Shown: in pieces, positions 8,897-57,616 of the stretch | How the letters are laid out: every line of letters begins with the position of its first letter | Position numbering within the stretch: the stretch's first letter is position 1 | DNA from: a candidate division WOR-3 bacterium | GTDB lineage: Bacteria > Hydrothermota > Tepidihabitantia > Tepidihabitantales > Tepidihabitantaceae | Reading direction: 5' to 3' | Assembly (NCBI GenBank): GCA_039801365.1 | Contig: JBDRUN010000001.1 | Coordinates: forward strand, 37,711 to 101,710 | DNA length: 64,000 nt | Program-made: the position numbers and the translations under genes | Notes under the pieces: model-generated | What the model saw: only the letters and a program-made list of their open reading frames with translations | The model's database searches: none | Told to the model about the DNA's origin: nothing

Positions 8897-9871
8897 GTGC
8901 CTGAGCTACCAGAACTTGAAGCAATCAGCGCACGGCTTCGCCTGGCCCTGACCGGCCGGCGAATACAAAGTCTGACACTCAACAAACCTTCGTGCCTCAA
9001 AACAACTGAGCCGAAACTGGTGGCGCTTGCCGATAACCGTATCATTACCATCATCAGACTAGGCCGGTTCCTCTGCCTGGGAACCGACCAGAAACTGTAC
9101 CTGTGCATCCACCTGATGCAGGACGGCGGTCTGTGTCTCTGCCCTGCTCACCACCCCATGACCACAAGCAATCTTCTCTGTCTCCACTTTGACAACGCCG
9201 AAGACCTGCGTGTCACTGAAGGCGGTACCAGACACCGGGTTCAGGTGCATCTTGTCACCGACCCGAACAAGGTCGCCTGGATTGCCGAGCTTGGTCTTGA
9301 CCCGCTTGGTCCCGATTTCACTCTCAACCGTTTCCGCCAGGCCCTGGCCCGGCGTAACCGAACGATCAAGAGGTTTCTCACCGACCAGCGAACTGTTGCC
9401 GGCATTGGTGGCTGCTACTCAGATGAAATACTCCACGAAGCCCGGCTTTCACCTTTTCAACCGACCGTCAGCCTGAAGCCAGAAGAGACAATTCGCCTCT
9501 ACGCCGCGGTGAAGAGGGTGCTCCACGACGCTATCGTGTATCTAAAGGCCCTGGACCACCTGCCCGACCGTCGCGACCGGACATTCCTCCAAGTCCACGG
9601 TCGTGCCGGGCAGCAGTGTTCCAGATGTGGCTCGGCGATACAGCGCGTCAGCGATGAGAAGTCAATCACATACTACTGCCCTGGCTGCCAGACTGGCGGT
9701 AACATCCTCGCTAACCGCTCCCCCTCCTCTTCCCTCCCACCTCAAGAGTTGGCAAGCTGGTCTAATGCCGCCTGCTTGCCCGCTGACCGCTCCCTCTCAT
9801 CTTCCCTCCCCCTTGAAGGGGGAGGGAATAAAAGGGAGGGGGATCGCCCGCTTTCCGGGCCCCTGAAGTGA
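8897..9871 (+). CDS. fpg: Formamidopyrimidine-DNA glycosylase (Fpg/Nei family)
   Basis: N-terminal MPELPELE (catalytic Pro2/Glu3). The C-terminal zinc finger CSRCGSAIQR...YYCPGCQ ends near 9715. The remaining roughly 50 codons of the predicted ORF run through the tandem repeat, so the true stop is probably earlier. Confidence 0.8.
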   Translation: MPELPELEAISARLRLALTGRRIQSLTLNKPSCLKTTEPKLVALADNRIITIIRLGRFLCLGTDQKLYLCIHLMQDGGLCLCPAHHPMTTSNLLCLHFDNAEDLRVTEGGTRHRVQVHLVTDPNKVAWIAELGLDPLGPDFTLNRFRQALARRNRTIKRFLTDQRTVAGIGGCYSDEILHEARLSPFQPTVSLKPEETIRLYAAVKRVLHDAIVYLKALDHLPDRRDRTFLQVHGRAGQQCSRCGSAIQRVSDEKSITYYCPGCQTGGNILANRSPSSSLPPQELASWSNAACLPADRSLSSSLPLEGGGNKREGDRPLSGPLK

Positions 9872-10007
9872 CCGCACGTTCCGCTCCCTTTCCTCTTCCC
9901 TCCCAGTTCAAGAATTGGCAAGTCGGGCTAATGCCGCGTGCTTGCGCGCTAACCGCCCCCCTTCCTCTTCCCTCCCCCTTGAAGGGGGAGGGAATAAAAG
10001 GGAGGGG
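9714..10007. repeat. Two tandem copies of an approximately 130-bp repeat (9714–9842 and 9881–10007), each containing the perfect hairpin TCCCTCCCCC-TTGAA-GGGGGAGGGA
   Basis: Direct comparison of the two segments shows about 85–90% identity. Each unit also carries an internal CTCTTCCCTCCC sub-repeat. Confidence 0.85.
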
Positions 10008-11217
10008 CCGCGAACTGGAATCTGGCATCTACAACCGTCTTGTTGTCGTCTCTTCTGAGATTGGTCGCGGCCACCCTTCTTACCTCGACTCGGTCATGCT
10101 TGCCCTGTCCCGACTTACTAGCGGTCAGTCTGACCAGACTGCGAAGCGGTTGACGGTTGCGGGCCTGTCTTCGGGTGTCTCGAGTCTGGCTTGGAAAGCC
10201 GTGCGCGCCGCCTACTACTTCGGCGGCCTTGGCGGCCCGGCGACGTGGCTGTACAACCGGTTACGCTCTCCCGACACCAGGCCATCTCGGCTGCAACTGT
10301 CAATCCTCGGCTCAGGCCTGCGCCGCCGTTTCACCGGCTACGAAGGCATCGTCATGGTTGACCATCCGCTCCTTGCCCACATTCTCGCCGGCGTCTGCCG
10401 CGTTGCCTATGTCCACGGCGAAATCGCTGCGCCTTGTTTCTGTGCCGTACCTTCTGTCTGGCGCACCTTTGTACCGCTAGAGTCAACTGCCGCCCGGCTC
10501 GCCGCGTGGGGCATGAGGCGTGAGGCGCTAGGCGTCTGTGGCCTTTTCATCGAGCCCCAACTGGTCGAACAGGCCGAGCCAGCCTATGCTGCTCGCATCC
10601 AACGCCTTGACCCGTCTTCTGATACCCGTCTCACTGTTGGCTTCTTTACCTCTGGAGCACACCCTCGTCCGCATCTGCGGCACATCATTCTTGCCGCCGC
10701 TTCGGTTGCCAGAGTCGGGCATAATGCAATCGTATTCTGGGGCCTCGGCTGGCTGCGTGCGGCCAAAGCTCAACTGTTGCTTCAGCGGTTGGCACTGCCC
10801 GACGGTTCGGTACGGCCGGTCTGGGCACGTACCCGGCAGGATGAAACAACTCGCACCGCTGAGCTATTCCCACAACTGGACGTATTGGTAGCTGCGGCCC
10901 ACGAACGTACCAACTGGGCTGTTGGCCTTGGTTTGCCGATGTTTGCGCTTCTCCCCCATATCGGCCCATTTGCCCGCGAGAACTTCGAGTTTGCACAGCA
11001 ACAGGGCGTCTGCCTTCCACTTGTGTCCGCAGACGATGCCGCGGCCCTGGGTTCATCGCTTGGCGCGCTACGCCGGTATGGGCGGCTGGCCGAGATGGCC
11101 CGCGCCGGCTGGCGCCGATATCCCATCACCGGAGCCGAAAGAGCAGCCCGCAGCCTGCTGGAGTCTATCGCACTGGATCAGCCCGGTCTTAGTAAGGCAG
11201 AAAGCGTCGTTGACTGA
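9868..11217 (+). CDS. Putative GT-B glycosyltransferase (MurG/MGDG-synthase-like); N-terminus uncertain
   Basis: The C-terminal half looks like a GT28-type fold (…VLVAAAHERTNWAVGLGLPMFALLPHIGPFARENFEFAQQQGVC…). There is an N-terminal SSEIGRGHPSY motif. The annotated start lies inside repeat copy 2, so the real start is probably downstream of 10010. Confidence 0.4.
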   Translation: MTARSAPFPLPSQFKNWQVGLMPRACALTAPLPLPSPLKGEGIKGRGRELESGIYNRLVVVSSEIGRGHPSYLDSVMLALSRLTSGQSDQTAKRLTVAGLSSGVSSLAWKAVRAAYYFGGLGGPATWLYNRLRSPDTRPSRLQLSILGSGLRRRFTGYEGIVMVDHPLLAHILAGVCRVAYVHGEIAAPCFCAVPSVWRTFVPLESTAARLAAWGMRREALGVCGLFIEPQLVEQAEPAYAARIQRLDPSSDTRLTVGFFTSGAHPRPHLRHIILAAASVARVGHNAIVFWGLGWLRAAKAQLLLQRLALPDGSVRPVWARTRQDETTRTAELFPQLDVLVAAAHERTNWAVGLGLPMFALLPHIGPFARENFEFAQQQGVCLPLVSADDAAALGSSLGALRRYGRLAEMARAGWRRYPITGAERAARSLLESIALDQPGLSKAESVVD

Positions 11218-22435: not shown

Positions 22436-25400
22436 TTACTTCTCTACCACCAGCTTCTGCGTTTGGGGTAGTCCGGTTGCGTCCAACCTTACCAGGTAGA
22501 CGCCGGCCGCAAACTGCCTCAGGTCCAGCACGATTGGCAACCGAGTGTCGGTCACCCGTTGGCCGAGAACGCACCGGCCTGCCGCGTCAAACACGCGCAC
22601 CCAACCCCCTGGCCACCTGGGTTCCTGACCACTCAGCCTAAGTATCGCCCGGCCGTTCGCAATCGGATTAGGGCTCACTGTAAGCTGCGTCCCGCCCGCC
22701 ACCGCCTTGTCTGCCTGCACTCCGGCGTAGAGTGTATTGCGCCGGGTGTAGCGTGCCGGGGCTTCGACCCAGCGCCAGAACTCAAAGGTCTTGTTCCCCT
22801 TCAAGGCAAACAGGGCCAAGTCTCGATACCCTGCAATGTCCCCTCCGGCCTTCACATACTTCTTCTTGCCGGTCGAACCGTTGCCCGGCATCGTGTCCAG
22901 CTCCTGCCAACTGTCGCCATCCGGAAAGTAACGGAAAAACTGCTGTGTATTGCCACCCTTCAAGGCGTACAGATTGTCGCGAAACCAAGCGCCGCCTGCT
23001 CCGTCCTTTGACTTCTTCTTCTTGTCCGGCCTGCCGCTGTGCCAGCCTGATACCGGCATCCCCTTGAGCGTGTCAGTCCACCTCTGGGTCAGTACGTCAT
23101 AACGGAACATGCAATGGTGTGGGTTCTCCTGTGTCTTATCGTAATACTTTGCCTGGTGGCAATATATCTCGGACACGGCCTGGCCCCTCTTGTGGTAAAC
23201 AAGGAACGAGCCTTTGTCGTACTTCTGCTTGGCGACACCATAAGGTGCCTCATCCAACGTATCCCAGCGGCCGGCCAGCACATTGTAGCGGTAGAACTCG
23301 GTCTTGCCACCCTTCAACAGATACACATAGCCGGTATCGTGCTGCTTCTTGGCATACACCATGTCGGTTCCCCCCTTCACCTTCTTGCCGTACTTGCCGA
23401 GCGGCACGTTTGCAAGCGAGTCCCAAGTGTTGGTGGTAACGTTGTACCGCCAGAACCCGAGCGTATTATTGCCCTTGACCATATAGACATAGCCATCGCC
23501 AAACACTGCGGCGCAGCCCTTAGAGGGCGGTTTCCTGCGGCCGCCCTCGTAAGACGGAATCGTCTCCAAGACAAAGAACGTGTCGTCCTCTGGCTCGTAC
23601 CGGTAGAAGTCAACCATCTTGTTACCCTTGGCAACGTACAAGACCTTGCGTCCATCGGTTGCCGCCCCCCCCTCGATTACAAAGGCACCATCCTTCACAC
23701 CCTTTGCCCCTGTTTCGTGCGGCACCGACTTCACCTCCACCCAGCCCGGAGGCCAGGAGGGTCCCTCCTGCCTTGTCGAGAAAGTAAACGGCCCGTTCGA
23801 GCTCCATTTTTCACCGTCGGTTGCAGTAATTGCCTTCACGTCCCACTTGTAGGCCGTGCCGTACTTCAGGGCCGCAAGGTCGTAGGTCCAGGTGTTGTCT
23901 GTAAGCCCGGTCTTCACTGGAGAACCTTCCCGCGGATTTGCGGGCGACTCGGTAAGGTACACTTCATAGGTCAACGTGTAATCAGGACTTGCGTCTTCCC
24001 ACTCAAATTTGATTCCGGTCACTGGCTGGCGTAAGGCCAAGTCGGCTGGCTTGGTCAGATTGAAGTCCTTTGGCTCAGGTATCGGTGACCGGACCGTGAA
24101 CGTCGCGGGATTGGATTCGCCACCGCCTGGATTCGGATTGAACACGGTGATTGGGTACTCACCCGCAACAAGCAGGTCCCCGGCCGGTATTGCCGCTTCA
24201 AGTTCAGTCGCACTCTTCCAGGTCGTTCCCCTGTCCGAGCCGTTGAACCGCACGACCGAGCCTGGGCCGAACCCGGTTGTTGGAACGAAGTTCGTGCCGG
24301 TAACGGTCATTGTAAACCCTGGGTCGCCGACGTTCTTCTCATCCGGGTCAATGTCAGTAATCGTGGGCACCAGGTTCTTCACCGTGAACATCACCGGGTC
24401 TGACTCACCACCACCCGGACTCGGATTGAACACGGTGATTGGGTACTCACCCGCAACAAGCAGGTCCCCGGCCGGTATTACCGCCTCGAGTTCGGTCGCA
24501 CTTTTCCAGGTCGTTCCCCTGTCCGAACCGTTGAACCGCACAACCGAGCCTGGGCCGAAGGCAGTTGTTGGTACAAAGTTCGTGCCGGCAACGGCCAGTG
24601 TAAACCCTGGCTCACCAACATTCTTCTCATCCGGGTCAATGTCAGTAATCGTGGGCACCAGATTCTTCACCGTGAACATCTTCGGATCAGACTCCCCACC
24701 CCCAGGCGCCGCGTTGAACACAGTAATCGGGAACTCACCTGCGACTTCAAGGTCCGAGGCCAGTATCGTCGCCTCCAGCCTGGTATTGCTCTTGTACTCC
24801 GTAGCCCTGGGCGAGCCGTTGAACCGCACGACCGAGCCTGGGCCGAACCCGGTTGTTGGAACGAAGTTCGTGCCGGTAACAGTCAGCGTGAACCCAGGTT
24901 CGCCCGCATTCTTCTCAGACGGGTCTATGCTTGTGATACTGGGCCTCAGGTTCTTCACCGTGAAGCTGTGGGTACCGGTACTCGGGTACTTGTCGTTAGT
25001 CTTCACCTGGTCAGTACTGAGTTCGGTGCTGCACGTCACGGTGTAGGTGCCAGCGTAGAGTGTGACGTTCACCTGGCTGAAGTTCACCGCCTTGCCGGCT
25101 TGGAGCGGGTCAAGACTCGGCGTCTTCTGGTCGCTCCAGACCTGGGTGCCGCTGGAGTTGTAGATGCGGAGTGTCACCGGCACGGTCGGCTCGCTGGTCG
25201 AGGTGAAGTTGGAAATCGTCGCAACCGGCGTAATCGGGTCGCCGAAGTTGTACTCTGAACCATTGGCCGGAGTTGTTATCCCGACTGCACCCACGTCGTG
25301 CGGCTGCGTTGCCGTGTAGTTGATTACCAGATACGGAGCAGTTCTCTTCCAGCCATAGATGTACCGAGCCGCAGTACCGCCCGTACCCCTCTTTATGCCG

Positions 25401-38606: not shown

Positions 38607-38627
38607 GCCTGGGAGAAAGTAGAGCGA

Positions 38628-38660
38628 GTTACAGCGTTACATGTTACAGGTTACAAGTTG
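38628..38660 (+). repeat. Short array of the GTTACAG heptamer (GTTACAG-CGTTACAT-GTTACAG-GTTACAA)
   Basis: Seen in sequence between nikR and the TonB-dependent receptor gene. It is the same heptamer as the arrays at 57003–57088 and 57584–57616. Confidence 0.7.
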
Positions 38661-52248: not shown

Positions 52249-53844
52249 TCATTGACCCTCCTGCTTGCTGTTTCGCGACAGGCTCCGCAGTCGCGCCACT
52301 GCCTCGGCCACGAGCCTGCCCTGTTCTTCAATCGCGTCCAGCAATTGCTCCGGCGTGCGGGTATCTTCCACGACTTTGCGGTTCGGGTTCACCGCCTTCA
52401 AGTCGAGCCCACGTTTCTCCAGTTCCTCCCGCGTCACGGTCCAGCTCCTCTCGCTCTCGCCCCGCTGGGGCAGAAGCCGAAAGAAGTCCTCGAACCGGTC
52501 CCGGGTCAAGGGCTTCTTCTTTGTCACCTTCACGTCCGAGATGTCGTAGTACCAGACTTTCTCGGTCGGCCTGCCCTTAGTGAAGAACAATAGGTTCGCC
52601 TTCACGCCCGCACCCGCGTTGATGAACGTGCCCGGCGGCAGGCTGATGATGGCCCAAAGGTCGCACTCGTCCAATAGCTTCCGCTTGGTCTGCACGAAAG
52701 CGTTCTCGTTGGTGCGGAAGAGCACACCTTCATCCAGCACGATACCGGCGCGCCCGCCCGGCTTCAGGGAGTCAATTACATGCTGGAGAAACAGCACCTG
52801 CGTGGCGCTGGTTCTGTAAGCAAAACGGGTCTGAGCCTCTTTGCTCTCCTTCCCGCCGAATGGCGGATTCATCAGGATGACATCGTACAGGGAAGGCGCT
52901 CCGGTAAACAGACCGCCATATATTTCCTGTCCGGTCAGGGTATTGCCGTGCCAGATGTGCGGTTCGTCAATCTCGTGCAGGACCAGATTGGCAAGCGCAA
53001 TCGGATAAATGGTGTTGTCCTTCTCCCGGCCAAAGAAGGTTCTACGTTTGAGGATATCCATCTGGTCAGCGGTGACGTTCTCGCCCAGGCGGGCCCGGAT
53101 GTGCGCGTAGGTCTCGGCCAGGAATCCGCCGGTTCCGCAACACGGGTCGTACACCGTTTCTCCTACCTTCGGGTCTATTCCGCGCACCAGCACCCGGATA
53201 ACCTCGCGCGGTGTGAAAAACTGGCCGCCGTCATTGTTCTTCTCGCCCATCTTGAGCAAAAGACCTTCATACACCTGAGACAAGGCGAACACGTGGGTCT
53301 GGTCAACCGTCTCGTGCGACAGCTCGTTCACCTTGTCTAGCACGTCCAGGAGGTTCCGCTCGGTATCAATTCGCGTGCGCTCCACGCCGGAGAAGATTTC
53401 CGAGATAACCTTCTGCCGCGGGGTGGCGTTCGGCTTGTCCTTCAGCGCTTTCAGGTGTGGAATCAGGTCCCGGTTCACGAAGTCGTAGAATGCGTTGGTC
53501 GCGCCTTCCACCAGCGCCTTACGCTTCTTTCCGTCGGGCGCGGCCCAGTCGCGCCAGCGGTAGGGTGGTTTCAAAGACGGCGTGAACGGCACGGACAGCG
53601 CCTCGGCCTCAATCGCCTCGCGCTGTTCGCGCTCATCCAGAATCCGCAGGAAAAGAATCCAGGTCAGCTCCGGCACGTACTGCATCGCACCGGCGCAATT
53701 CGACCGGCGCATAATGTCGCAGATGGACTTCACAGCGGAATTGACCGAAGCGGGAGAGGCTAGGAGTTTTGGATTTTGGGTTTTGGATTTTGGATTGAGA
53801 GGGGAACGAGGACGATTCTGGGTTTTGGATTTTGGACTAGGCAT
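52249..53844 (-). CDS. hsdM: Type I restriction-modification system methyltransferase subunit HsdM
   Basis: HsdM_N-like …SICDIMRRSNCAGAMQYVPELTWILFLRILDE…. SAM motif DPCCGTGGFL. Catalytic NPPFG (ILMNPPFGGKE). The first roughly 40 codons (PKSKTQN…) are encoded by the TTTTGGA repeat array, so the start could instead be an internal codon. Confidence 0.85.
   Translation of the reverse strand: MPSPKSKTQNRPRSPLNPKSKTQNPKLLASPASVNSAVKSICDIMRRSNCAGAMQYVPELTWILFLRILDEREQREAIEAEALSVPFTPSLKPPYRWRDWAAPDGKKRKALVEGATNAFYDFVNRDLIPHLKALKDKPNATPRQKVISEIFSGVERTRIDTERNLLDVLDKVNELSHETVDQTHVFALSQVYEGLLLKMGEKNNDGGQFFTPREVIRVLVRGIDPKVGETVYDPCCGTGGFLAETYAHIRARLGENVTADQMDILKRRTFFGREKDNTIYPIALANLVLHEIDEPHIWHGNTLTGQEIYGGLFTGAPSLYDVILMNPPFGGKESKEAQTRFAYRTSATQVLFLQHVIDSLKPGGRAGIVLDEGVLFRTNENAFVQTKRKLLDECDLWAIISLPPGTFINAGAGVKANLLFFTKGRPTEKVWYYDISDVKVTKKKPLTRDRFEDFFRLLPQRGESERSWTVTREELEKRGLDLKAVNPNRKVVEDTRTPEQLLDAIEEQGRLVAEAVARLRSLSRNSKQEGQ
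53766..53838 (+). repeat. (TTTTGGA)n-type tandem array (GTTTTGGATTTTGGGTTTTGGATTTTGGATT … GGGTTTTGGATTTTGGAC)
   Basis: Seen in sequence between the Fic stop and the hsdM start. It overlaps the N-terminal codons of the long hsdM ORF. Confidence 0.8.
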
Positions 53845-54855: not shown

Positions 54856-54913
54856 GGTTCTACTCTACAATAAGTCAAGTATAAGTCAAGTTATTAGTCA
54901 AGCCAGGACTGCA

Positions 54914-54942
54914 ATTTTGGATTTTGGGTTTTGGATTTTGGA
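54914..54942 (+). repeat. (TTTTGGA)n-type tandem array
   Basis: AATTTTGGATTTTGGGTTTTGGATTTTGGA, immediately 3' of the four-helix-bundle gene. Confidence 0.8.
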
Positions 54943-55299
54943 TTAGGCGCGGGAGCGTCTCAAAGTCTTGATGGATGCTACCGTCATCGCCAAGATGTTG
55001 TCGGCTTCAGCCATCAGGTTTTCCGTATCCGGCTCGGATGCAAGGCGAGCGGCGACGAGCAGGTCCAGCCAATAGATGACCTCATCGGCTTCCTCCTCAA
55101 CGATTGCCAGTTTGGCAAGCATATCGGCCCGTGACCGGGCCCGGCAGGCCGCGCGGTAATTCGCGCCGACCGACGTGGCGCACCGCAATAGTTGCCGGCC
55201 GATGACGTCTGCGCAACGGCTCCGCGGCAGCTCATCAACCAGCCGGATGGCCTCCAACCCGAGTTTTCTGGTCCTATCCTTGAACTCCTGCTCAGTCAC
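54943..55299 (-). CDS. Four-helix-bundle protein (TIGR02436 family; '23S rRNA intervening-sequence protein')
   Basis: 118 aa. …EAIRLVDELPRSRCADVIGRQLLRCATSVGANYRAACRARSRADMLAKLAIVEEEADEVIYWLDL… is the characteristic pattern. Confidence 0.8.
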   Translation of the reverse strand: MTEQEFKDRTRKLGLEAIRLVDELPRSRCADVIGRQLLRCATSVGANYRAACRARSRADMLAKLAIVEEEADEVIYWLDLLVAARLASEPDTENLMAEADNILAMTVASIKTLRRSRA

Positions 55300-55352: not shown

Positions 55353-55436
55353 CAATCCAAAATCCAAAATCGGCAATCCAAAATCATCTGCGCCCCCATT
55401 TCCGCCAATCCAAAATCCCCAATCCAAAATCCAAAA
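55353..55436 (-). repeat. (TTTTGGA)n-type array in inverted orientation (CCAAAATCCAAAATC … CCAAAATCCAAAATC)
   Basis: Seen in sequence between the hsdS stop and the four-helix-bundle start. It is the reverse complement of the 54914–54942 array. Confidence 0.8.
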
Positions 55437-55997
55437 TCAGATGTCTCCTCTAAACGCCTTCCGCAACAGCGCGGCCGGCAGTTTGTTGATTGTTTCCAAC
55501 TGGGCCTCAAGGGCCAGTCGGTGCTTCTCGGCCTCGGCCATACGTTCATTCAGCATCCCCGCAATCCGCCTCTGCTCGGAAAGGGGAGGAAGGGGAAGGA
55601 CAATCTCAGCCGCGACCTTCTGGTTCAGCTTGGCCCTCGTCGCACCGGCGACCATATCGCCCACATCGGGCCGGATTCGGATGGCCAGCAAGCAGTAGGC
55701 AAAGTCAATGCTATCAGGTCTTGGTCTGAGCACGTGAGCGTGGTTGTTGACCCAGTACTTGCCAGCCACAGCATAGGCGATAGGTCTGTCAGCGGATCCA
55801 AAGAACCCGCCGTCCTCGGCGAGCAATATCAGCGGTTCATCGAAAAGGTATCCGTCTATCCAACCCACTTGGCCATTGGCACCATAGTAGGGGTATAGCT
55901 CTGCCTGTTTCTTTCCCGCGATGCGCCGCATTCTGTCGGGTTCATTGACGGGCACTCTCCGGCCGTCTAAGAACTCGCACACCTCTCCCAGCTTCAC
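55437..55997 (-). CDS. hsdS: Type I RM specificity subunit HsdS (single target-recognition domain, half-size)
   Basis: 186 aa. One TRD followed by the conserved coiled-coil region …LPPLSEQRRIAGMLNERMAEAEKHRLALEAQLETINKLPAALLRKAF. Confidence 0.75.
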   Translation of the reverse strand: MKLGEVCEFLDGRRVPVNEPDRMRRIAGKKQAELYPYYGANGQVGWIDGYLFDEPLILLAEDGGFFGSADRPIAYAVAGKYWVNNHAHVLRPRPDSIDFAYCLLAIRIRPDVGDMVAGATRAKLNQKVAAEIVLPLPPLSEQRRIAGMLNERMAEAEKHRLALEAQLETINKLPAALLRKAFRGDI

Positions 55998-57002: not shown

Positions 57003-57088
57003 GTTACAGATTACAGCAAGAAAGTTACAGGTTACAGAGTTACAGGTCACAGCAGAAAGGTTACAAGTTACAGGGTTACAGGTTACAG
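57003..57088 (+). repeat. About 10 tandem copies of the GTTACAG heptamer with short spacers
   Basis: Seen in sequence, e.g. GTTACAG-ATTACAG-caagaaa-GTTACAG-GTTACAG-aGTTACAG. It ends 2 bp before the stop of the second four-helix-bundle gene. Confidence 0.85.
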
Positions 57089-57090
57089 GA

Positions 57091-57583: not shown

Positions 57584-57616
57584 TCTCTGTAACTCTGTAA
57601 CCCTGTAACCTGTAAC
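57584..57616 (-). repeat. GTTACAG heptamer array in inverted orientation (plus strand reads CTGTAAC x4)
   Basis: Seen in sequence immediately 5' of the second four-helix-bundle gene. It is the reverse complement of the 57003–57088 array. Confidence 0.8.

Follow-up and report, generated by a model that had tools for sequence, protein, structure and literature searches.

Two in-frame insertions of a triplex-motif repeat around the predicted fpg/glycosyltransferase coupling junction of a candidate division WOR-3 bacterium

A 64,000-nucleotide stretch of the genome of a candidate division WOR-3 bacterium (assembly GCA_039801365.1, contig JBDRUN010000001.1), analysed in full and called the window below, contains fpg, the gene of an Fpg/Nei DNA glycosylase, followed directly by a gene whose product has a predicted GT-B glycosyltransferase fold. 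A palindromic repeat of 127 nt occurs in two direct copies at the junction, one in each gene. Comparison with related loci indicates that these copies are in-frame insertions of the same orientation, which bracket a preserved and apparently coupled fpg/GT-B junction and are probably translated as disordered protein tails. We favour, with moderate confidence, the view that the element is a composite repeat of triplex type, i.e. selfish or neutral non-B DNA tolerated in predicted disordered protein termini. An earlier note on this DNA, made from the letters alone, had placed the repeats between the two genes and attributed the fact that both open reading frames (ORFs) run through them to mis-called gene boundaries. 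The ORFs do read through the repeats (fpg, 8897–9871; next ORF, 9868–11217), the element is indeed repeated, structured and closer to repetitive extragenic palindromic (REP) sequences or to MITEs (transposable elements of the miniature inverted-repeat type) than to ordinary coding sequence, and the next gene is glycosyltransferase-like, as the note had it; the location and the boundaries had to be reinterpreted.

Insertions on both sides of an intact stop/start overlap

Fpg proteins of the WOR-3 clade are almost always 281 aa long and end in ...CQTGGxILADRRLSRLLK (the 3' end of fpg in repeat-free relatives is ...ILADRRLSRLLK and the stop). At the empty site of L125, whose Fpg is 72% identical to that of the window, the ancestral DNA reads ...ATCCTCGCCGACCGCCGGCTTTCCCGGCTCCTCAAGTGACCGCGCGTTCTGCAATC..., where TGA ends fpg and an overlapping GTG starts MTARSAICNPLVAL..EIGRGH of the next gene. 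The 281-aa Fpg core ending in DRRLSRLLK and a stop is present in L125, L124 and L122, and the (G/A)TGA overlap was found in L121, L125, L126, L128, L130, L131, L132, L137, L140, L142 and L145. In the window this ancestral overlap, GTGA at 9868–9871, is intact within the 39-nt spacer between the two repeat copies, so that the repeats do not lie between the genes. The distance from the zinc finger to the EIGRGH motif is 74–167 nt in compact junctions (11 loci), as against 383 nt in the window.

The Fpg of the window reads ...CQTGGNILANR, followed by 41 added residues, DRPLSGPLK and the stop. Copy 1 forms a 129-nt in-frame insertion (43 codons) nine codons ahead of the fpg stop, and on its 3' side the native nonapeptide is kept in frame (DRPLSGPLK, consensus DRRLSRLLK, each followed by the stop). 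Because this nonapeptide lies downstream of copy 1 in the reading frame of fpg, which contains no stop before 9869, the stop is correctly placed and translation must cross the repeat. The spacer itself is read as GAT CGC CCG CTT TCC GGG CCC CTG AAG (DRPLSGPLK) and the stop, and then as GTG ACC GCA CGT (MTAR). The insert is flanked by AACCGC on the 5' side and by GATCGC (9842–9847) on the 3' side, where the empty sites of L125, L124 and L126 have a single GACCGC. The Pfam domains Fapy_DNA_glyco, H2TH and zf-FPG span residues 1–266, the zinc finger ending near residue 266, and the NCBIfam fpg models cover residues 1–265. In the AlphaFold model residues 266–324 have a predicted local distance difference test score (pLDDT) below 50 and no secondary structure.

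The second insertion is the counterpart of the first on the other side of the overlap. The downstream protein consists of MTARS, 47 added residues and then SGIYNRLVVVSSEIGRGH (SGIYNRLVVV), copy 2 being part of a 141-nt in-frame insertion (47 codons) after codon 5. The native N-terminus MTARS lies upstream of copy 2 and in frame with it, which, together with the native Fpg C-terminus behind copy 1, speaks against mis-called boundaries. The 47 residues are absent from the four aligned relatives, and at 80 metagenome loci with relatives of this protein the matches start mostly at query residue 54–61, past the insertion. Candidate starts of the gene are GTG 9868 (ancestral), ATG 9931 and TTG 9979 (the latter two in copy 2), besides the non-canonical CTG 10015 and ATC 10027; past copy 2, no in-frame ATG, GTG or TTG occurs ahead of the invariant EIGRGH motif. 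This start is placed differently in public records: one of them (P0123) gives 428 aa from ATG 9931, and the record of the relative L121 gives 455 aa from the ATGA overlap. In relatives, the segment ahead of CSEIGRGHP varies in length and often consists of short tandem repeats. Since it is length-variable and repeat-rich across relatives, the N-terminal segment of the GT-B protein is permissive.

Alleles of the junction in the closest relative

Both insertions are lineage-specific. The closest relative, L121 (GCA_965649195.1), is 97–98% identical to the window at the nucleotide level over ~18.8 kb (segments of 8.7 and 10.1 kb) and carries insertions at the same two sites. Its copy 2 is 100% identical to that of the window. 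In contrast, 72 nt are missing from its copy 1, including the first C box and the small hairpin; this deficit matches, to the nucleotide, one CCGC-to-CCGC period of the internal direct repeat, and the frame is kept, as 72 nt correspond to 24 codons. The resulting Fpg (P0001) has 300 aa. The earlier note had considered that a long tail might be shared among Fpg homologues: a shorter version of it is present in this closest relative only, and the clade norm remains 281 aa without a tail. The flanks of site 1 in L121 are GACCGCC and GATCGCC, and the displaced nonapeptide, DRRLSRLLK in the consensus, is diverging, with DRPLSGPLK found in the window and DRQLSGPRK in L121.

Between the window and L121, the shared part of the site-1 module is only 84% identical; for the L121 module and the 3' half of copy 2 the figure is 91%. 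The L121 hairpin shows a compensatory C:G to T:A change (TTTCCTCCCCC/GGGGGAGGAAA). Judged from these alignments, site 1 appears to have changed much faster than its surroundings, via deletion, conversion or both, or perhaps via re-insertion, and the locus seems to be polymorphic or unstable between near-identical genomes. It should be kept in mind that the comparison (a 72-nt indel and 84% identity against 97–98% for the genome) concerns a single locus with no control set.

Structure of the repeat

The two copies, 9715–9841 and 9881–10007, are 88% identical, within the 85–90% estimated before, and their starts are 166 nt apart. What had been described as 130-bp tandem repeats are thus two real direct copies of 127 nt, which are not strictly head-to-tail because the spacer parts them; the pair is not listed by Tandem Repeats Finder. 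The boundaries of the unit are sharp, as sequence outside the 127 nt fails to align between the copies. A tandem segmental duplication of the unit plus spacer was ruled out on the same grounds.

A perfect hairpin is present in each unit, as had been noticed: the 25-mer TCCCTCCCCCTTGAAGGGGGAGGGA occurs at exactly 9803–9827 and 9969–9993 (0 expected from 100 shuffles), with the layout TCCCTCCCCC-TTGAA-GGGGGAGGGA exact in both copies. The unit does not end at this hairpin, as had been thought, and continues 3' with ATAAAAGGGAGGGG, the mirror of the G arm. Its order from 5' to 3' is (i) a C box, CCGCTCCCCCTCCTCTTCCCTCCC, (ii) a small hairpin, GGCAAGC...GCTTGCC, (iii) a second C box 72 nt from the first, (iv) the TTGAA loop, (v) the G arm and (vi) ATAAAAGGGAGGGG. 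CCGC opens every sub-unit (9715, 9787, 9881 and 9953) and also stands directly 3' of copy 2 (10008). The module contains Shine-Dalgarno-like GGAGG strings. Allowing up to 3 mismatches, searches for the hairpin, for the G arm and for the middle part of the unit found no third copy in the window, nor did blastn-short.

The copies are translated in different frames, giving LPLEGGGNKREG (copy 1) and SPLKGEGIKGRG (copy 2). Two of the three forward frames of the unit are stop-free, which makes the survival of in-frame copies likely. A comparison with 4227 Rfam covariance models gave no match at the gathering threshold, either at the locus or at related modules, and below the threshold only generic hairpin matches to miRNA models appeared. 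The idea of terminator-like hairpins fell away, since there is no T run and the terminator scan called none; what comes after the hairpin is ATAAAAGGGAGGGG on the + strand, and GATGAGAGGGAGCGG or GAGGAAGGGGGGCGG on the - strand.

The 3' part of each unit corresponds to a triplex motif. Class II intrastrand triplexes (PMC4666352) comprise a pyrimidine stem, a complementary purine stem and a third strand mirroring the purine stem (triads G*G:C, A*A:T and T*A:T). We applied these criteria in our own ITxF-like scan, with stems of 6–15 nt, at most one mismatch and loops of 1–6 nt. Both cores, with stems of 11 nt and loops of 5 and 3 nt, fall under the class II definition: copy 1 has 11 triads with 0 mismatches, and copy 2 has one mismatch, in the last triad. 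On the + strand of the 64-kb window the scan found only the two copies and, on the - strand, one motif at 9993 within copy 2, as against 0 in 20 shuffles. The third block is a perfect mirror of the second, which explains the conserved 'AATAAAAGGGAGGGG' 3' of the hairpin. The same strand also contains a G-quadruplex motif (at least three G in each of four runs, loops of 1–7 nt), GGGGG-A-GGG-AATAAAA-GGG-A-GGGG(G), at 9818–9842 and 9984–10007.

The strict pattern of the TMECO/BoxC element, 5'-CCCTCNCCC N3-6 GGGNGAGGG N3 GGGNGAGGG-3', is not matched. Agreement with TMECO extends over the C stem CCCTCCCCC, the TTGAA loop and the first of the G stems, GGGGGAGGG; three bases further on, AAAAGGGAG stands in place of GGGNGAGGG. 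A longer AT spacer precedes the third strand, GGGAGGGGG, and the A:T triads lie at other positions than in TMECO. As the strict E. coli regular expression is not matched, the core of the window is a variant and not the E. coli consensus. The coordinates of all features are collected in Table 1.

Table 1. Features of the fpg/GT-B junction (positions counted from the first letter of the window)
Feature	Position	Strand	Description
fpg (Fpg/Nei DNA glycosylase) ORF	8897..9871	+	324 aa, copy-1 insertion included; Pfam, NCBIfam and homologues
Left copy of duplicated target hexamer, AACCGC	9713..9718	+	codons N-R of ...ILANR; empty sites have one GACCGC
Repeat copy 1, long form	9715..9841	+	127 nt; with the duplicated hexamer, 129-nt (43-codon) in-frame insertion
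C box A of copy 1 (CCGCTCCCCCTCCTCTTCCCTCCCACC)	9715..9741	+	direct repeat of C box A' 9787-9813, spacing 72 nt
Small internal hairpin of copy 1	9751..9780	+	GGCAAGC...GCTTGCC; inverted repeat and predicted fold
Triplex-motif core, copy 1	9802..9842	+	TTCCCTCCCCC 9802-9812, TTGAA, GGGGGAGGGAA 9818-9828, TAA, mirror AAGGGAGGGGG 9832-9842; 41-mer TTCCCTCCCCCTTGAAGGGGGAGGGAATAAAAGGGAGGGGG
Native spacer, 39 nt	9842..9880	+	DNA alignment with empty-site L125 (GACCGCCGGCTTTCCCGGCTCCTCAAGTGACCGCGCGTTC) and protein alignments
GTGA stop/start overlap (putative ancestral coupling junction)	9868..9871	+	fpg TGA 9869-9871; downstream GTG 9868-9870
Downstream gene, uncharacterised WOR-3 family	9868..11217	+	449 aa from the ancestral GTG; GT-B glycosyltransferase fold predicted
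Repeat copy 2, long form	9881..10007	+	127 nt; within a 141-nt (47-codon) in-frame insertion
In-frame ATG inside copy 2 (in CTAATGCCGC)	9931..9933	+	start in public record P0123 (428 aa, MPRACALTAP...)
Triplex-motif core, copy 2	9968..10007	+	TTCCCTCCCCC, TTGAA, GGGGGAGGGAA, TAA, AAGGGAGGGG
Peptide strings of inserts, if translated			LPLEGGGNKREGDRPLSGPLK, MTARSAPFPLPSQFK

Distribution of the triplex-motif core and of the long form

A scan for the 23-nt hairpin in one genome per species yielded at least 120 loci, in Nitrospirota, Desulfobacterota, Alpha-, Beta- and Gammaproteobacteria, Planctomycetota, Chloroflexota, Actinomycetota, Bacillota, Spirochaetota and others, and the genomes bearing it include isolates and complete long-read chromosomes. 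Among the matches listed, 106 of 109 hairpins agreed with the triplex criteria, 97 of 107 modules were also G-quadruplex motifs and 15 of 90 hairpins lay in long open frames. The oriented form common elsewhere is CCCTCCCCC-TTGAA-GGGGGAGGG-tt-GGGGtGGGGGtGa. In related WOR-3 contigs, modules of triplex type were found at 5 sites in 492 kb.

Other genomes share no more of the unit than its hairpin end, a core of 40–55 nt. The middle part, including the small hairpin, was absent among the matches listed (120 loci in other genomes), the metagenome pattern TAATGCCGC-N25-40-hairpin gave 0 matches, and the long form was absent from 0.49 Mb of related contigs. The possibility that the unit occurs only here, raised in the earlier note, therefore holds for the 127-nt long form, which was found only in this lineage, and fails for the widespread core. 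A phage origin was set aside, as none of 2.9 million viral contigs contains the 23-mer. A query that joined the peptides of three frames found no match, to which its X spacers or compositional bias may have contributed; the copy-2 peptide gave two weak matches among 1.84 billion representative proteins, both of them ORFs across other repeat arrays.

In-frame modules of other phyla are found in an N6_Mtase domain (HsdM methylase of Saprospiraceae), near the N-terminus of a class I/II BioF-like aminotransferase (Gemmataceae), in the linker of a NifE-N-like fusion (Nitrospirota), in a helicase and in others, and all of them encode PSPLKGEG-like strings. Crude gene calling revealed no clear orientation bias of the generic modules relative to genes. 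In another WOR-3 lineage (L126 and L153) a related C-arm/G-arm module lies in frame ~25 codons further into the downstream gene. The target TGACCGC is present at three WOR-3 insertions and not at the other modules of the related contigs; we make no claim on this point.

Several alphaproteobacterial metagenome-assembled genomes (L004, L009, L036, L038, L044, L048, L051, L070, L095, L102, L106 and L109) carry a composite element of ~125–200 nt. It has an outer C/G stem, two hairpins of triplex type and a variable middle, is located just 3' of stop codons with conserved outer flanks, and is multi-copy per genome.

Comparison with known repeat families

The closest architecture is that of the BoxC/PIT/TMECO elements (Hoyne & Maher; Holder et al. 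2015, PMC4666352), in which a C stem is joined by a 3–6-nt loop to its complementary G stem, and this by a 3-nt loop to another G stem. According to PMC4666352, 3610 copies are present in 262 proteobacterial genomes, those of E. coli MG1655 are 'always located intergenically' and without strand bias, and the motif is not associated with mobile elements. The same study describes triplex formation in vitro, earlier work in which neither promoter nor terminator activity was seen, the absence of a correlation with gene function, and motif loci that are markedly more rearranged between strains than controls. The window element resembles this class in (i) architecture, (ii) multi-copy, wide spread, (iii) the lack of an associated transposase and of strand bias, (iv) paired or inverted arrangements, (v) apparent variability between close relatives, here at a single locus, and (vi) a G strand that is also a quadruplex motif. 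Unlike the published, intergenic elements, both window copies lie inside coding sequence and in frame, and the core forms part of a 127-nt composite, to which an additional C box and another, small hairpin belong. The hosts also differ (WOR-3 as against Proteobacteria or Cyanobacteria), and the core is likened to the class by sequence criteria alone. Archaeal repeats recurring as potential quadruplex sequences, which switch between hairpin, triplex and G-quadruplex, are likewise all intergenic (PMC8044849).

In behaviour, the window copies recall the Rickettsia palindromic elements (RPEs; Ogata et al. 2000). As summarised in PMC10969869, these are palindromic repeats of ~100–150 bp inserted in frame into unrelated genes, where they add a few dozen residues to proteins that survive, and are seen as selfish DNA tolerated at permissive positions. 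The window inserts (129 and 141 nt) are in frame in the same sense, and the resemblance is one of behaviour only. There is no sequence relationship, the host of RPEs is Rickettsia as against WOR-3 here, and RPEs encode a conserved peptide in one frame as against two frames here, form families of dozens of copies per genome as against two adjacent long-form copies here, and are not known to be triplex or G-quadruplex motifs.

REP sequences and REPINs, which are mobilised by RAYT, share with the window unit short GC-rich imperfect palindromes that are often paired, usually lie near gene ends and can form long hairpins. The unit, however, contains neither GTAG nor CTAC and has no GTAG-type head; its arms are homopurine/homopyrimidine, a single arm being all-C or all-G and not palindromic, and the third (mirror) strand is absent from REPs. 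No RAYT gene turned up in the window, where no search was aimed at RAYT. MITEs are likewise small and non-coding, with inverted-repeat ends, short flanking direct repeats and occasional in-frame fusions with host ORFs (PMC10969869). In contrast to them, the flanking repeats here are imperfect and unequal (6–7 nt at site 1, of the form GAYCGC(C); ~5–12 nt and degenerate at site 2, CCGCACGTTCC vs CCGCGAAC...TCT), and no parent insertion sequence is known. Apart from the C/G arms, no clear inverted repeats are seen at the ends of the long form.

Mycobacterial interspersed repetitive units (MIRUs) are direct repeats of 40–100+ nt at junctions of co-transcribed genes, with the stop/start overlap and coupling preserved, which is a likeness to the window. 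They form tandem arrays between genes, where they make small coupled ORFs, unlike the window copies inside the two genes flanking the overlap. They share no sequence similarity with the window copies and are not known to be G/C mirror repeats.

Origin and possible role of the insertions

The favoured reading is that of a tolerated selfish or neutral repeat and not of a regulator of genes. Comparison with the relatives shows that a composite palindromic repeat was inserted twice in this WOR-3 lineage, with one copy on each side of the coupled junction; copy 1 adds 43 residues before the last nine of Fpg and copy 2 adds 47 after residue 5 of the next protein. When single-stranded, the repeat could form a hairpin, a purine-motif intrastrand triplex or a G-quadruplex, as related motifs do in vitro. 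These structures, together with the internal 27-nt direct repeats that each start with CCGC, may render the locus prone to slippage or recombination, which fits the 72-nt in-frame indel between close relatives. The insertions would persist because they landed in predicted disordered terminal segments and are stop-free in the frames used. The direct repeats at the flanks are short, match imperfectly and differ in length; microhomology-mediated copying or template switching at CCGC would therefore fit better than the fixed-length footprint of a transposase.

Several observations weigh against this reading. Only two copies are present in 64 kb and the long form was found nowhere else that was searched, which leaves dispersal unsupported, and copy 2 may be a local copy of copy 1. 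No transposase, no clean target-site duplication and, with no search aimed at it, no RAYT was found. Strong predicted RNA structures bracket the stop/start overlap, and these, like the compensatory change in the stem, also fit a selected RNA function. Purine triplexes, moreover, do not form in RNA (PMC4666352).

For annotation this means that the extended tail of Fpg and the unusual N-terminal part of the protein after it are in-frame insertions around a preserved stop/start overlap and not boundary errors. By its sequence, the core extends the poorly understood BoxC/PIT/triplex class to an uncultured phylum and, contrary to its published description, into genes, which fits the proposed link of the motif to local genome instability. 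The filled, half-filled and empty alleles of one junction in close relatives constitute a natural experiment on how the motif arises and spreads and on its effects on replication, coupling and protein tails.

On a broader and more tentative view, BoxC/PIT-type motifs in general would be cross-phylum repeats that also colonise coding sequences in frame, in the manner of RPEs, and create disordered tails or linkers; the pair described here may in addition set the strength of coupling between the two genes.

It is possible, if somewhat doubtful, that there was a single insertion from outside, and that local events, namely template switching or gene conversion between CCGC microhomologies at a distance of 166 nt, produced both the second copy and the difference between the long and short modules at site 1. 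The element would then not be an actively mobile family in this genome. Such local copying agrees with the restriction of the long form to these two adjacent sites, with the presence of CCGC at every sub-unit start, with an indel of one CCGC-to-CCGC period, and with the imperfect, unequal flanking repeats; the short L121 site-1 module resembles the site-1 module of the window (84%) less than it does the 3' half of copy 2 (91%), which suggests conversion between the sites. On the other hand, the copies are only 88% identical to each other, yet copy 2 is 100% conserved between genomes 2–3% apart, so that any local copying must be old. The dispersal of triplex modules in WOR-3 contigs (5 sites/492 kb) and across phyla also indicates that an external supply exists.

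We regard as unlikely a role of the copies as a cis-regulatory RNA structure which, by bracketing the UGA/GUG overlap, would tune coupling, mRNA stability or the fpg:glycosyltransferase ratio, either by blocking independent downstream initiation or by cross-copy pairing that loops out the junction. The predicted folds of copy 1 (-64.8 kcal/mol; z = -4.7) and copy 2 (-63.4 kcal/mol; z = -3.6) are indeed far more stable than those of shuffles. For the whole 351-nt region the value is -156 kcal/mol (z = -5.2), the copies pairing with each other around the junction, and an 11-nt complement (AAAGGGAGGGG/CCGCTCCCTTT) closes a 39-nt loop holding GTGA. The compensatory C:G to U:A change in L121, the identity of copy 2 in both genomes and the Shine-Dalgarno-like GGAGG in the module point in the same direction. 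However, every other relative with the same coupled junction lacks the element, the generic modules show no clear orientation bias, and they are reported to have neither promoter or terminator activity nor a correlation with gene function (PMC4666352). An RNA hairpin gives no role to the mirror G strand, and two or three sequences are all that bear on covariation. By our own estimate, a 224-nt identical run including copy 2 is not unusual at 3% divergence. Selection on copy 2, considered because of its 100% identity, was dropped for lack of significance by the same estimate (~3% divergence).

Two further explanations are very improbable. The first is that of an intergenic REP/MITE element or a terminator pair wrongly absorbed by ORF predictions, as the earlier note proposed; most Fpg homologues do stop ~43 residues earlier, the repeat-encoded peptides are low-complexity and the public calls of the downstream start differ (428 aa vs 455 aa), but the empty-site comparison contradicts it, a ribosome must read copy 1 (no in-frame stop before 9869), the native nonapeptide with the stop/start overlap and MTARS lie in frame 3' of copy 1 and 5' of copy 2, respectively, no canonical start separates copy 2 from EIGRGH, and there is no T tract, terminator call or GTAG-type REP signature. 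Equally hard to credit is an adaptive coding extension, in which the inserts would be functional peptides (linkers, localisation or interaction tails) selected for their protein sequence: the frames are open and in register in two genomes, even across the 72-nt (24-codon) indel, and RPEs offer a precedent for tolerated in-frame repeats (PMC10969869), whereas the copies are read in different frames and give unrelated peptides, all other homologues lack the inserts, both inserts are predicted to be disordered, the 1.84 billion representative proteins hold no similar peptide save the two weak matches across repeat arrays, and the displaced Fpg nonapeptide is diverging.

The downstream protein and the junction in other WOR-3 lineages

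The downstream protein has no Pfam or NCBIfam match. Its AlphaFold model (mean pLDDT 87.6; residues 1–49 below 50 and devoid of secondary structure) shows a GT-B fold, the best PDB matches being MGD1 (4wyi, 4x1t), then GtfB and UDP-GlcNAc 2-epimerases. MGD1, the closest structural match, is a galactolipid synthase of GT28. The invariant motifs of the family include EIGRGHPSYLDS and HERTNWAVGLGLPMF. In L140 (3960–4010), L128 (3900–4000), L132 and L130 the N-terminal segment of the GT-B protein is encoded by heptamers of CATTCGA or CTCGCAA type, and its length differs by lineage. The in-frame module of L126 (2735–2800) and L153 (4065–4130), TTCTCTTCTTCCCTCTCCCCGGCTGCGGGAGAGGGCAAGCGTGAGGGGG, is placed in the GT-B gene just 3' of TGACCGCGC, which is similar to the flanks of both window insertions.

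The fpg gene of other WOR-3 lineages also contains inserted segments. In L126 (2340–2430; also P0017) a palindrome, CCCTTTCCGGTCCGACGGAAAGGG, with GCGGGACAT direct repeats lies in frame inside Fpg and adds ~28 residues after the H2TH domain; it differs from the window repeat. The Fpg homologues P0022 and P0026, from another WOR-3 lineage, have S/P/T-rich in-frame insertions of 25–33 residues in the N-terminal domain (alignment columns 108–147).

In L128 (3739–4019) and L145 (1103–1345) the 3' end of fpg is seemingly duplicated or replaced: L128 has a second, out-of-frame ...ADRRFSKFLK remnant with its stop before the downstream start, and L145 only ...FLK with its stop. These remnants suggest that the fpg/GT-B junction is a rearrangement hotspot. 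In L122 (4789–5697) and loci with a junction of ~900–1060 nt, a PETase/dienelactone-hydrolase-like gene is located between fpg and the GT-B gene.

Other repeats of the window

Tandem Repeats Finder identified three tandem copies of a 288-nt unit at 24093–24964 (81% matches, score 1100). The second half of the window contains clusters of heptamer-type tandem repeats (AGTTACA, TTTTGGA/ATTTTGG, AATCCAA, GTTACAG and CTCTGTAA), which the same program placed at 38627–38659, 53767–53836, 54870–54944, 55354–55438, 57003–57089 and 57585–57616.

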